From the IMG/VR virus record IMGVR_UViG_2681813316_000024, positions 1 to 24,423 of that record: DNA of 24,423 nucleotides; one strand, written 5' to 3'. Below are positions 1 to 3,617 of this stretch, piece by piece. How positions within the stretch are numbered: the first letter of the stretch is position 1; each line of letters starts with the position of its first letter. The DNA is from a virus (taxonomy: Duplodnaviria; Heunggongvirae; Uroviricota; Caudoviricetes). Below the pieces are notes generated by a model that was given only the letters and a program-made list of their open reading frames with translations, was not told where the DNA came from and made no database searches. The translations under genes were made by a program, and so were the position numbers.

Positions 1-507
1 ATGGCGCAATCACAAGCCGGATTCGGAATGGCTGCATTCTGTGGTAAGCACGAACTCAGCCAGAACGACAAACAAAAGGCTATCAACTATCTGATGCAAT
101 TTGCACACAAGGTATCGGGGAAATACCGTGGTGTGGCAAAGCTCGAAGGAAATACTAAGGCAAAGGTACTGCAAGTGCTCGCAACATTCGCTTATGCGGA
201 TTATTGCCGTAGTGCCGCGACACCGGGCGCAAGATGCAGAGATTGCCACGGTACTGGCCGGGCCGTTGATATTGCCAAAACAGAACGGTGGGGGAGAGTT
301 GTCGAGAAAGAGTGCGGAAGATGCAAAGGCGTCGGCTATTCAAGGATGCCAGCAAGCGCAGCATATCGCGCTGTGACGATGCTAATCCCAAACCTTACCC
401 AACCCACCTGGTCACGCACTGTTAAGCCGCTGTATGACGCTCTGGTGGTTCAATGCCACAAGGAAGAGTCAATCGCAGACAACATTTTGAATGCAGTCAC
501 ACGTTAG
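1..507 (+). CDS. Q: Late-gene antiterminator Q (lambda Q type); 5' end cut by the window edge
   Basis: The 168-aa ORF matches my memory of the C-terminal ~170 aa of lambda Q almost residue for residue (MAQSQAGFGMAAFCGKHELSQNDKQKAINYLMQFAHK...NILNAVTR). It includes the zinc motif CRDCHGTG...CGRCKGVG. The first Met is internal in lambda Q, so the true start lies upstream of the window. Confidence 0.95.
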   Translation: MAQSQAGFGMAAFCGKHELSQNDKQKAINYLMQFAHKVSGKYRGVAKLEGNTKAKVLQVLATFAYADYCRSAATPGARCRDCHGTGRAVDIAKTERWGRVVEKECGRCKGVGYSRMPASAAYRAVTMLIPNLTQPTWSRTVKPLYDALVVQCHKEESIADNILNAVTR

Positions 508-549
508 CAGCATGATTGCCACGGATGGCAACATATTAACGGCATGATA

Positions 550-591
550 TTGACTTTTTGAATAAAGTTGGGTAAATTTGACTCTAACGAT
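550..591 (+). promoter_or_regulatory. Late promoter pR' with overlapping qut (Q-utilisation) site and a sigma70 promoter-proximal pause element
   Basis: TTGACT (550-555), a 17-nt spacer and TAAATT (573-578) form the promoter. AACGAT (586-591) follows; this is the -10-like pause inducer of lambda pR'. The whole block is nearly identical to the lambda pR'/qut sequence as I remember it, and it sits directly downstream of Q. Confidence 0.8.
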
Positions 592-609
592 GGGTTGCTG
601 CCTTCGTTC

Positions 610-645
610 AAGCCCTGATATTAACGTCTCGGGGCTTTTTGCGTT
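610..645 (+). terminator. Intrinsic terminator of the short pR' leader (functional analogue of lambda tR')
   Basis: A 9-bp stem pairs AAGCCCTGA (610-618) with TCGGGGCTT (629-637), with one G-U pair and a 10-nt loop. It is followed by TTTGCGTTTT. It lies about 50-60 nt after the predicted pR' start, so the 6S-like leader RNA would be much shorter than lambda's. Confidence 0.55.
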
Positions 646-876
646 TTAAGCACAACGGAAAGCCTTCTTTCATGCCCTGCTTAGGCTCGACACTAAGTAT
701 TTGGGAGAGTTGGCTTCCCCATGTGGTTAAAACATGGTTTGTAATGGGTACTCAGCCAAAGAACCTTCCTGTAGGGCGCTGAGCTAAGTCTCACGTAGTA
801 GCCACCACATCCTAACCTGCTACCTCAGGAAATCGGTCGAAAGACGCCTGATAAACGTAACTGGTCCCCTTCAGCT

Positions 877-1233
877 ATGGCTAGACCGGCCAGTCGAAAA
901 GCAGTATCGTCACTGCCTGCCATAGCGAACATAGACGAGCAACTAGACGAGGTTGTTATGGAAAAAATCTCTGGAAGAGAACTGCATTTTCTCAATCGAA
1001 TTCTTCAATTTAAGCAGGAGAGAATTGCTGATTCTGACGTACAGGATGATGAGATTCTCATGGTTGACTCATTGGTCCGTCATGGATATCTTGCTGTTGG
1101 CTTTTTCGACCGTGATAATAACGGCGGATATCATAGCTTAATGCAATACTACTCTCTTACCGAACTTGGCGTTGCAGCTCATAAAGATGAATGGAAATGG
1201 AGAGGGAATCCAAATTCAAATAAAGGTCGCTAA
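877..1233 (+). CDS. Hypothetical protein (118 aa; 91 aa if started at ATG 958) on a foreign insert between pR'/tR' and the lysis genes
   Basis: This is the only long ORF in the 0.65-1.5 kb gap. ATG 958 has a good SD (GAGG, then 5 nt). ATG 877 has none. The stop codon sits in the loop of a strong terminator hairpin. The pattern ...SGRELHFLNRILQF...DSLVRHGYLAVGF... looks like a small winged-helix fold, but I recognise no family. Confidence 0.5.
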   Translation: MARPASRKAVSSLPAIANIDEQLDEVVMEKISGRELHFLNRILQFKQERIADSDVQDDEILMVDSLVRHGYLAVGFFDRDNNGGYHSLMQYYSLTELGVAAHKDEWKWRGNPNSNKGR

Positions 1234-1248
1234 GGCGGCCTTTTTATT
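1223..1248 (+). terminator. Intrinsic terminator immediately after the insert ORF
   Basis: An 8-bp stem pairs AAGGTCGC (1223-1230) with GCGGCCTT (1235-1242), with one G-U pair. The 4-nt loop UAAG contains the stop codon. A T5 run follows (1241-1245). Confidence 0.7.
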
Positions 1249-1516
1249 GCACGACATTTCTGAAAGCGCATTCCACCAAAAACCAGACAGACAAAACCCT
1301 CACCTTATCCGCTGTGGCTACGGTGCGGTGTGCTTTGCATAAAAGAAAACCAGCTCAATGGCTGGCTTCGTGAAAGCGGGTGGCAAGAGGTTGCGCTAAC
1401 AACCTGATGCCGTTTTGCCCGTGCATATCGGTCACGAACAAATCTGATTACTAAACACAGTAGCCTGGATTTGTTCTATCAGTAATCGACCTTATTCCTA
1501 ATTAAATAGAGCAAAT

Positions 1517-1530
1517 CCCCTTATTGGGGG
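1517..1530 (+). promoter_or_regulatory. sdi-type stem-loop upstream of the dual-start S gene
   Basis: CCCC-TTATT-GGGGG lies just 5' of ATGAAGATG. The sequence from about 1420 onward matches lambda upstream of S as I remember it. In lambda this hairpin sets the S107:S105 initiation ratio. Confidence 0.5.
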
Positions 1531-1536
1531 TAAGAC

Positions 1537-1860
1537 ATGAAGATGCCAGAAAAACATGACCTGTTAGCCGCCATTCTCGCGGCAAAGGAACAAGGCATCG
1601 GGGCAATCCTTGCGTTTGCAATGGCGTACCTTCGCGGCAGATATAATGGCGGTGCGTTTACAAAAACAGTAATCGACGCAACGATGTGCGCCATTATCGC
1701 CTGGTTCATTCGTGACCTTCTCGACTTCGCCGGACTAAGTAGCAATCTCGCTTATATAACGAGCGTGTTCATCGGCTACATCGGTACTGACTCGATTGGT
1801 TCGCTTATCAAACGCTTCGCTGCTAAAAAAGCCGGAGTAGAAGATGGTGGAAATCAATAA
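1537..1860 (+). CDS. S: Class I holin/antiholin S (S107/S105 dual start, Met1-Lys2-Met3)
   Basis: The 107-aa product is essentially identical to lambda S ([41 protein letters not shown]...). It has the MKM dual-start motif and three hydrophobic segments. Its end overlaps the R start. Confidence 0.96.
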
Positions 1861-2894: not shown

Positions 2895-3133
2895 GATAAG
2901 AGCCAGTTCATTACAAAGCCTATCTACTGGTGGGCTTGATAATGAAACCGGAATTTATTCTGGGTAACCAGTTACGGCAGTACAGCGAAACAACCCAAGC
3001 CAGTAAGTGGGGAAATAACACTGGCAGCCACTGAAAGATGAACCTCCTGCCTTATGGCAAAAAAAGATTCTTTGTGGTGGCGGACTGATGGAAAGACATC
3101 CTAATCAAGCAACCACTCCACAGGGTCATAATT

Positions 3134-3514
3134 ATGAACGACCAGCAAATCGAAAAAGAAATCGTTGAGAAAGGCAAAACCGCTCCGAGAATCACTCCGC
3201 AGCACATCGAAGACGTGATTAAAAGCGAGCATTACTTTACTGCTTATGATGGACGTAATGGTGCCATTTCCAGCAACGAATATTGTGGCAGGGAAAAACC
3301 AGAAGAAGGCGATCGTGATTTATCACCATTGAAGTTGCTCACTTTCTGCGTACTGGTGCTGAAGAATGGCTTCACCGTCACCGGAGAGAGTGCCTGTGCA
3401 AGCCCGGAAAACTTTGATGCAGAAATTGGTCGGAAGATTGCCCGGCAAAATGCTGTAAACAAAATCTGGATGCTCGAAGGTTACTTGCTGAAGCAGAAGC
3501 TAAGCGAACAGTAG
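3134..3514 (+). CDS. Conserved phage protein, probably N4 Gp49 / Sf6 gene 66 family (unknown function)
   Basis: 126-aa ORF. The C-terminal pattern ...LTFCVLVLKNGFTVTGESACASPENFDAEIGRKIARQNAVNKIW.LEGY resembles that family as I remember it. It lies between lysis and terminase genes, as in other P22-like phages. Confidence 0.6.
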   Translation: MNDQQIEKEIVEKGKTAPRITPQHIEDVIKSEHYFTAYDGRNGAISSNEYCGREKPEEGDRDLSPLKLLTFCVLVLKNGFTVTGESACASPENFDAEIGRKIARQNAVNKIWMLEGYLLKQKLSEQ

Positions 3515-3617
3515 TTATTACAAAAGCCATTCCCTACAGAGTGGCTTTGATAATGGCTTATACCCTACACGGGATAACTTAACTGATATCCCTTTTAACG
3601 GATAAACGGAGCCAACA

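Follow-up and report, generated by a model that had tools for sequence, protein, structure and literature searches.

The int-alpA RNA motif as a candidate translational leader of exchangeable cargo cassettes in the late operon of a P22-like Escherichia coli prophage

The interval between the late antiterminator gene Q and the holin gene S is a described cargo slot of lambdoid phages, holding stx or, in phage L and Sf6, transfer RNA (tRNA) genes (PMC8022706, PMC8065619). The stretch of DNA analysed here, referred to as the window, comprises positions 1 to 24,423 (24,423 nucleotides, nt) of the IMG/VR virus record IMGVR_UViG_2681813316_000024, and in this slot it carries a copy of the int-alpA RNA (Rfam family RF02996) followed by a small open reading frame (ORF). 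The cassette that these elements form shares with the described cargos the slot and the logic of read-through from the late promoter pR' by Q, but its cargo is a small protein with a predicted DNA-binding fold rather than a toxin or a tRNA, and it brings its own leader and terminator. A preliminary description of the window had placed DNA foreign to lambda between Q/pR' and the holin gene, and this placement was correct.

The int-alpA motif was reportedly described by Weinberg et al. in 2017 as a candidate small RNA (sRNA) and named for the neighbouring int and alpA genes. The family occurs in proteobacterial phages and prophages, and the window copy shares with it the three-way junction and the junction bases CUAG, CGAAAAGC and GCCUG. 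As filed, RF02996 is an sRNA, whereas the window copy precedes a predicted winged-helix cargo in a late operon and has a tail that is not U-rich. The name-giving neighbours int and alpA are not found at the window, where the element lies between Q and the terminator tR' on one side and the cargo gene and then the holin gene on the other. In the literature searched, int-alpA is mentioned merely as a list entry.

The insert also resembles a moron, a concept of Juhala and Hendrix whose classical definition is said to hold no standardised ends common to many cargos. It lies between genes that are adjacent in phage HK022, has its own terminator and carries a non-essential small gene. Related cassettes have a -10 box of their own, whereas in the window copy no promoter can be recognised and the insert that contains it lies directly behind tR'; the cassette also differs from the classical moron through its standardised ends (RNA leader and terminator), which are common to dozens of unrelated cargos. 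Morons have been discussed for P22-like phages (PMC2629481). With riboregulators that sequester the Shine-Dalgarno (SD) sequence, such as riboswitch platforms and RNA thermometers, int-alpA shares a conserved folded core with covarying stems and an element able to pair with the ribosome-binding site as well as with a rival copy upstream. In int-alpA, however, the rival is a direct repeat of the sequence near the ribosome-binding site, to which a hairpin loop would bind as in a pseudoknot or kissing complex, and not a classical alternative helix. The put RNAs of HK022 are promoter-proximal, cis-acting antiterminator RNAs, and the likeness consists in a promoter-proximal folded RNA of lambdoid phages that acts in cis. 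A relation to put was rejected, as the HK022 genome has no int-alpA match at the gathering threshold. Two further features speak against a role in antitermination: the int-alpA loop is directed at the ribosome-binding site, and every cassette closes with a terminator.

Set against these systems, the locus itself is ordinary: a moron in the classic Q-to-S cargo slot with a rare small winged-helix gene. Within the literature searched, what is new is the evidence for int-alpA as a cis-acting leader with a two-site design directed against the ribosome-binding site, the framing of interchangeable cargo by this leader and a standard terminator, and the recurrent false N-terminal extension that the leader yields in protein databases. 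The explanation that we favour, and regard as reasonably likely when taken as a whole, is that window positions 654-1248 form an accessory addition to the leader of the late operon in a P22-like prophage with a lambda-type Q, and that this DNA consists of two independent modules. The preliminary description had treated the insert as one unit, a view that does not hold given two separable modules, 654-870 and the cassette from 871 onward. The features of the insert are as follows.

654..870, plus strand: module A, a conserved non-coding late-leader block (hairpin 651-725, core 746-783, block 801-866)
871-1252, plus strand: module B, the cassette (int-alpA RNA, linker with SD, ORF, terminator), with conserved leader and terminator and swappable cargo
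874..940, plus strand: int-alpA RNA (Rfam RF02996), a three-way junction, cmscan score 43.7 bits (gathering score 35.8)
874-881/919-926, plus strand: P1, the outer stem
884-886/893-895, plus strand: P2, a hairpin
896-900, plus strand: junction GAAAA between P2 and P3
stem 901-904/913-916, loop 905-912, plus strand: P3, the second hairpin, with loop UAUCGUCA
931..957, plus strand: linker and ribosome-binding region, nearly invariant in 79 leaders (among the matches listed)
934-938, plus strand: repeat R1, GACGA, complementary to the P3 loop UCGUC at 907-911
938-944/951-957, plus strand: P4, the SD hairpin, with the SD region in or beside its loop
946-950, plus strand: repeat R2, GACGA, overlapping the SD GAGG and complementary to UCGUC at 907-911
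949-952, plus strand: SD GAGG, 6 nt before ATG 958
958..1233, plus strand: cargo ORF of 91 amino acids (aa), predicted winged helix, starting at ATG 958
1222..1248, plus strand: cassette terminator, stem 1222-1230/1235-1243, loop UAAG, U-tract 1241-1245

The match to RF02996 has an E-value of 2e-7 (3.7e-6 when the whole window is scanned), related loci score 41.6-45.9 bits against the same model, and positions 400-1700 contain no Rfam family other than int-alpA at E <=1. The 3' tail of the family model spans repeat R1. A looser leader pattern retrieved at least 120 contigs from IMG/VR with 79 distinct leaders; the fractions of leaders, loops, contexts and cargos given here and below are counted among the matches listed. 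Across these 79 leaders the three-way junction is paired in about 94% of cases (93.9% of cells), and the number of cells with changes on both sides was 133, compared to 43 +/- 5.7 in shuffled alignments, a value reached in none of 500 column shuffles and in none of the slid controls (2-23). Covariation is seen in all three stems, and the occurrence of G-U pairs identifies the sense strand as the one that folds. The SD hairpin P4 is paired in 93.5% of cells with modest covariation (three pairs changed on both sides). The junction nucleotides were fixed in every pattern used to retrieve these loci, as was GACGAGG in the first scan. That approximately 20 junction bases are invariant hints at the binding of a factor or ligand, with the reservation that the same bases are fixed by the search patterns. 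A looser regular expression for further int-alpA copies lacking the SD found none in the retrieved loci.

The feature that sets the leader apart is the complementarity of the P3 loop to two repeats at the ribosome-binding site. A second IMG/VR scan, for which the junction was fixed, the linker left free and the SD not required, returned at least 75 new leaders with many different loops, which brings the leaders compared to more than 150, and in the new ones the repeats change along with the loop, as in the following examples (repeat 2 is given with the bases that follow it).

Loop UCCGCA: repeat 1 UGCGGA, repeat 2 GCGGAgg
Loop UCAUCAC: repeat 1 GUGAUGA, repeat 2 UGAUGAGAgg
Loop UCCCGA: repeat 1 UCGGGA, repeat 2 CGGGAgg
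Loop CCCUAA: repeat 1 UUAGGG, repeat 2 UAGGGG

The test set was limited to one representative per distinct loop (70 loops), a site was defined as a perfect complement of at least 5 nt between the junction and the start codon, and the null distribution was obtained by swapping loops among leaders. At least one complementary site was present in 75% of leaders versus 16% after loop swapping, and at least two sites in 52% versus 4%, with a maximum of 12% in 300 permutations. The two sites lie a median of 7 nt apart and the last ends a median of 8.5 nt before the start codon. Nearly every leader (69 of the 70) is followed on the same strand by an ORF of at least 40 aa that starts a median of 36 nt downstream. 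In the 45 two-site leaders the two possible duplexes are near-isoenergetic (means of -8.7 kcal/mol for loop:R1 and -8.4 kcal/mol for loop:R2), with R1 stronger in 29, R2 in 12 and both equal in 4. The Rfam consensus itself has the loop CCUU and the tail AAGG, two complementary segments that its structure line does not pair with each other.

The arrangement matches that of an anti-SD element opposed by a decoy, and it implies cis-acting control of translation initiation; to the extent that sequence comparison can decide, the data argue for RF02996 as a cis-acting translational leader rather than a trans-acting sRNA. From the covariation, the leader would work in cis on translation as follows. 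The three-way junction, with its approximately 20 invariant junction nucleotides, would present a hairpin loop complementary to both repeats. Pairing of the loop with R1, the putative decoy in the linker, would free the ribosome-binding site, while pairing with R2, on the SD and the ribosome-binding site, would occlude it. A bolder proposal, which we put forward tentatively as one possibility, is that the int-alpA junction is the sensor of a widespread phage riboregulator, for which a ligand or a host or phage factor would decide between pairing with the decoy and pairing with the ribosome-binding site, and which, together with the standard terminator, would form a portable plug-in cassette timing dozens of accessory and early genes. 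The design offers a concrete, testable mechanism for a motif of no known function, an orphan Rfam motif filed as an sRNA that sits at predicted transcript 5' ends or after tR' and before many unrelated genes.

The evidence that the leader frames its cargo as a unit comes from the sequences downstream. An exact leader search found 17 IMG/VR loci, which with two E. coli prophages and the window make 20 leader-bearing sequences. Identity among these is approximately 100% and extends from where the outer stem begins as far as the ATG, after which the ORFs diverge into about 11 different cargos of 69-129 aa, and in most of the 20 identity returns at a terminator of the form GGTCGC-NNNN-GCGGCC-T(5-7)-ATTGCAC. 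The wider set reproduces this arrangement, as the cargos downstream of related int-alpA loci are diverse: the 90 distinct proteins encoded downstream form 28 clusters unrelated to one another, and the GGTCGC-NNNN-GCGGCC-T terminator follows 57 of the 90. Most cargos have no Pfam or PHROG family, with DUF551 and DUF1376 (primosomal-like by PHROGs) as the exceptions. Judged by eye from sequence, further cargos appear HNH-like, methyltransferase-like or primase-like, and the others are small orphans. With the leader and terminator shared and the cargos differing, the unit of modularity is leader, cargo and terminator. The ORF noted in the preliminary description is only one of many interchangeable cargos that this leader precedes and this terminator follows.

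In the window, the cassette terminator has a 9-base-pair stem and a run of five U residues (-13.4 kcal/mol, z -4.12) and represents the conserved right end of the cassette. Its loop UAAG holds the stop codon of the ORF (TAA, 1231-1233), so that the strong terminator with a stop codon in its loop, as first described, is confirmed. The same framing is repeated at a second slot of the closest relative of the window (L012, IMGVR_UViG_2778261202_000006), which has a second cassette between Rz and the terminase gene (3462-3553, minus strand) behind a TAGAAT -10 box. In this cassette compensatory changes affect each of the three stems, and a different cargo is combined with the same linker, SD and terminator. 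The near-identical leader and terminator probably double as homology arms for cargo exchange between phages, and together they provide a sequence handle for finding accessory-gene cassettes in enterobacterial prophages. When the pattern was applied to a collection of species-representative genomes it gave 18 matches, six of them in Enterobacterales (Ewingella, Citrobacter, two Yersinia, Buttiauxella and Trabulsiella); the other 12 are consistent with chance (a rough hand estimate is ~25 chance matches). Within that collection the pattern is accordingly confined to Enterobacterales.

Several points weigh against this account. In the enterobacterial subfamily there is hardly any variation in the loop or in either repeat, so that pairing there is no more than consistent with the model. 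Support for the pairing comes from the wider leader set and a custom permutation test and not from a register-true alignment, and the loop-repeat covariation cannot separate pairing in cis from pairing in trans by a processed leader. The conservation of the junction bases is partly a product of how the search patterns were constructed. The timing of transcription, the efficiency of termination and the switch itself are all read from sequence, and the account assigns no role to module A. For the cargo protein, only one of five AF2 models is confident (the others have pLDDT values of 42-57), from an alignment of 7 sequences. Further, Rfam files RF02996 as 'Gene; sRNA', which leads to the first of the alternatives.

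If int-alpA were a trans-acting sRNA, released from the late transcript or by processing and regulating other mRNAs, the position of the ORF would be incidental. The Rfam consensus, with its U-rich tail after the outer stem, would suit such a molecule, but in the window the tail is GAACAUAGACGAGC, which is not U-rich, and the RNA is not separated from the ORF by a terminator. The ORF on the same strand behind 69 of the 70 distinct leaders and the identity of the leader right up to the ATG are not expected of an incidental neighbour, and the complementary sites are the RNA's own downstream linker and ribosome-binding site. It should be noted that loop-repeat covariation is equal for the two modes of action, and that in the phage with two cassettes the loops and repeats are near-identical, which makes cross-talk in trans possible. 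Overall we consider a trans-acting sRNA unlikely.

To the same degree improbable, in our estimate, is a leader that serves as a 5' stabiliser and boundary element against 5'-end-dependent decay and as a homology arm, with the complementarity reflecting a fixed pseudoknot and no switch. The position of the element on its transcripts fits this alternative. A -10 box lies 6-9 nt 5' of GGCTAG in 42 of 78 distinct upstream contexts (hexamers TATAAT, TAGAAT, TAAAAT and GATAAT, frequently with an upstream TG), and with such a box P1 would begin at about +1 of a dedicated transcript, while in approximately 20 other contexts, including the subfamily of the window, the element starts a few bases past an intrinsic terminator. 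Near-identical leaders and terminators around varying cargos would likewise be expected of a boundary element. A fixed pseudoknot needs only one partner, however, and two copies covary with the loop far above the loop-swapped expectation (52% versus 4%), the second of them on the ribosome-binding site and in a duplex near-isoenergetic with the first; the roughly 20 invariant junction nucleotides also exceed the need of a stabilising stem. The preferred reading remains that of a cis-acting leader with a decoy.

A third alternative is that the folded element is a DNA recombination site, similar to the single-stranded attC sites of integrons, through which cassettes would be inserted by a site-specific recombinase. 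The cassette boundaries coincide with the folded element and the terminal hairpin, one genome carries cassettes in at least two slots, GCAC microhomology is found at the junctions, and the motif-finding method behind int-alpA also picks up attC-like single-stranded DNA motifs (Weinberg 2017, PMC5737381). An attC site is a folded site at the 3' end of a cassette with a linked integrase, whereas int-alpA lies at the 5' end and spans the SD along with the region around the cargo start. It also occurs on the sense strand in every case, as its G-U pairs show, sits at a predicted transcript start in most contexts and has a loop complementary to the ribosome-binding site. No recombinase or integrase gene was present beside the cassette in the annotated contexts examined, a result that does not stem from a systematic search. 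A recombination site is thus very improbable.

The weakest alternative, to which we give next to no credence, takes the real gene to be the 118-aa ORF from ATG 877, with a 27-residue N-terminus acting as a shared signal or tag, and it has in its favour that the frame is open from 877 and that NCBI annotates the 118-aa form in E. coli HL15 and Serratia. The preliminary description had offered both starts, 877 or 958, with the end at 1233; the ORF is present with the start at 958, but the 877 start falls within the int-alpA leader. Searches with the 118-aa protein returned two kinds of hits. The first were homologues of residues 28-118 from Serratia, Yersinia proxima, Sodalis ligni and metagenomes (74-98% identity), and the second were ~20 proteins that share only MARPASRKAVSSLPAIANIDEQLDEVV and are unrelated after the internal Met, the shared 27 residues always stopping just before it. 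Of 75 distinct leaders, 58 have a stop codon that interrupts the frame 5' of the ATG. Positions 877-957 score as structured RNA with compensatory changes, and they lack the synonymous drift of the ORF: in a comparison of the window with E. coli HL15 the leader shows almost no change, whereas the ORF has a synonymous substitution rate (dS) of 0.72, with a ratio of nonsynonymous to synonymous rates (dN/dS) of 0.06. The SD GAGG is placed 6 nt before ATG 958, whereas ATG 877 is buried in stem P1, and PGAP calls the 91-aa form in strain OkiPb01684. The shared 27 residues, the closed frames, the constancy of the leader and the position of the SD together lead to a gene of 91 aa at 958-1233, and the 118-aa form was rejected because codons 877-957 are RNA leader and the frame is closed in most variants. 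A group of database proteins (P0010-P0028, from Salmonella, E. coli and metagenomes) carries the same spurious 27-residue N-terminus, which is the translated int-alpA leader, and the start codons of these proteins are therefore mis-called.

Values of dN/dS of 0.06-0.19 indicate purifying selection on the 91-aa protein, far from the neutral drift that the preliminary description had named as the outcome speaking against a gene. Its family is tiny, with six hits among 1.84 billion cluster representatives, none of them annotated, and only two independent full-length relatives (P0029 and P0030). There is no Pfam family even at E <=10, no match in PHROGs, no meaningful match among PDB sequences, and a fold search of BFVD gave weak, unnamed hits only, in agreement with the statement that the product belongs to no recognised family. 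The suggestion of a helix-turn-helix or wing-like pattern also held: the protein is predicted to be a winged helix with a MarR/PadR-like fold, representing a rare orphan family. Identity to MarR/PadR winged-helix proteins and to the small viral winged helix-turn-helix protein STIV F93 (PDB 2co5) is 12-18%; the predicted fold is alike, but the Pfam and PDB sequence searches did not place the protein among them. Judging by the model, a small accessory factor that binds DNA is the most likely identity of the product. As close relatives of the phage do without it, the protein is dispensable for the phage's own late programme, and it could be a regulator, an exclusion factor or an anti-defence factor.

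Some cargos that are otherwise different have short modules in common (L008, the second cassette of L012, P0017 and P0025; L010, L023, L034, P0021 and P0023). These modules are a C-terminal tail, ...GNG.YPFN.PGW.EQSQQ(R/K)(K/R)IF, and an N-terminal (I/V)GGP.DG motif. Sharing of this kind suggests domain shuffling among cassette genes.

The window derives from a P22-like E. coli podophage, of which it covers the late region, and its closest records are IME10, APC_JM3.2 and HZ41 (~96% identity). The features that surround the insert are the following.

1..507, plus strand: lambda-type Q antiterminator gene, 3' part (an ORF; 1-596 are 97% identical to lambda, and the gene is annotated 'antitermination protein' in a near-identical E. 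coli prophage)
550..578, plus strand: late promoter pR' with qut, TTGACT-17-TAAATT, from a promoter scan and identity to lambda and HK022
610..645, plus strand: resident late terminator tR' of P22/HK022 type, fold -14.8 kcal/mol, z -3.05, outside the insert
1249..1536, plus strand: late leader of HK022/HK97 type resumes, from the GCAC junction at 1249-1252, with lambda identity from 1366, and ends at holin S
1537-1860, plus strand: holin S (an ORF), with R and Rz downstream

By blastn, lambda identity covers window positions 1-596 (97.1%) and 1366-1951 (98.5%), which leaves 597-1365 as the non-lambda stretch. The preliminary limits, about 593 to 1380-1420, describe a real segment and were correct to within ~20 nt. 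HK022 gives a more exact boundary, as it matches 1-653 and 1249-2000 with an overlap of 4 base pairs. HK022 is thus the empty site, and the extra DNA of the window is exactly 654-1248, with GCAC at both 650-653 and 1249-1252. Across the empty site the HK022 sequence reads ...GGGCTTTTTGCGTTTTAAGCAC|GGCCTTTCTGAAAGC..., with the junction at about position 36980 of that genome. The sequence 'T-run + ATTGCAC' trails both tR'-type and cassette terminators in many loci, and together with the GCAC microhomology at the insert junctions it may mark points of module recombination.

The preliminary description had counted a close-in terminator at 610-645 as part of the foreign insert. The terminator is real, as its fold indicates, but it is not foreign. 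It is 89% identical to a stretch annotated as 'terminator' in P22 records, from which we identify it as the resident tR', and it is also present in HK022, the empty-site phage. Both terminators of the region rest on folding, homology to the annotated P22 terminator and conservation across loci; a scan with a consensus terminator listed neither 610-645 nor the downstream one. Transcription from pR' presumably starts at about 585, by homology to lambda pR'. Given a -10 box whose last base is 578 and a U-tract that spans 636-640, the constitutive leader would be ~56-61 nt, close to the ~55 nt originally given.

No promoter-like site was found by the promoter scan between 579 and 1063, from pR' to the ORF, so that a promoter of its own, as expected of a moron, is absent there, and the window leader has no -10 box at the spacing found in 42 of the 78 other contexts. 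The absence of a promoter between pR' and the ORF leads us to infer Q-dependent expression, and the initial statement that the ORF is read by Q-modified polymerase stands as the default reading; expression of the window cassette is probably Q-dependent, going by its promoter content. Q-modified polymerase would pass tR' and read the cassette late, some expression in the lysogen may perhaps result from leaky read-through of tR', and the cassette terminator would halt unmodified polymerase ahead of the lysis genes. The same cargo (86% identical) occurs elsewhere behind a promoter-type leader with TACAAT 7 nt upstream (L117), and the mode of expression is therefore context-dependent.

Module A is separable from the cassette. 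In many relatives (L005, L006, L011, L015 and L018) the int-alpA element lies within a few bases 3' of tR' with no 654-870 block between, and conversely the module A core occurs with or without the cassette, including in lambdoid phages without any ORF at this position. Its invariant 38-nt core (746-783, GGGTACTCAGCCAAAGAACCTTCCTGTAGGGCGCTGAG) is identical in Klebsiella phage RCIP0114, in an E. coli prophage and in six further IMG/VR contigs, the latter counted beyond the close relatives of the window (L012, L013 and L016). In the annotated records of RCIP0114 and the E. coli prophage the core lies between a gene in the late-antiterminator position and the lysis genes, and the flanks of the six contigs show the same late-leader setting where they are readable. 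The long hairpin at 651-725 (-28.3 kcal/mol, z -3.06) is conserved at its base and variable in its apical part among phages, while the region 646-975 as a whole is not unusually stable (z -0.41). A hairpin at 719-737 that the preliminary description had singled out does exist, but it is weak (-7.3 kcal/mol, z -1.5) and not conserved in relatives; placed where the long hairpin and the core meet, it competes with the conserved hairpin 651-725 and was rejected as a functional unit. Module A has no Rfam family match in the window or in consensus-type loci.

Module A was also seen at L129 1460-1660, at L130 1460-1670 and in L149-L154. In L149 (4449-4995, minus strand) the late leader has an STnc100 sRNA and two tRNA genes directly upstream of module A, and the leader between Q and the lysis genes therefore seems to accommodate RNA genes quite generally. 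No tRNA or tmRNA (transfer-messenger RNA) was found in the window leader.

Likenesses of the int-alpA element to other RNA signals were examined by eye. Resemblances to the boxB of lambda and P22 (a GAAAA loop), to boxA and to the RfaH ops element were rejected as chance; for ops, only GGTAGC is shared, in the group-2 leaders, and it is absent from the window. A hammerhead-like core was rejected on inspection, the junction strands being too short.

The whole insert is rare and was found in 4 of 5426 complete E. coli genomes, with a 90%-identical version in two duck isolates behind a different antiterminator. One of the four genomes is that of E. coli OkiPb01684, in which the prophage is broken by IS3-family and IS21-family elements and Rz is truncated, so that the copy looks defective. 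In the slot between Rz and the terminase gene (3040-3560), the window shares the upstream 135 nt (2967-3100) with L012 and has at 3134-3514 a leaderless gene of 126 aa that differs from the L012 cargo. That gene is followed at 3521-3556 by a hairpin with a GATAAT element, which also trails cassettes elsewhere. Upstream of the holin gene, in DNA of HK022/HK97 type, a terminator-like hairpin on the minus strand (1346-1369, GAAGCCAGCC-ATTGAG-CTGGTTTT followed by a T-run) may be a leftward or bidirectional terminator.

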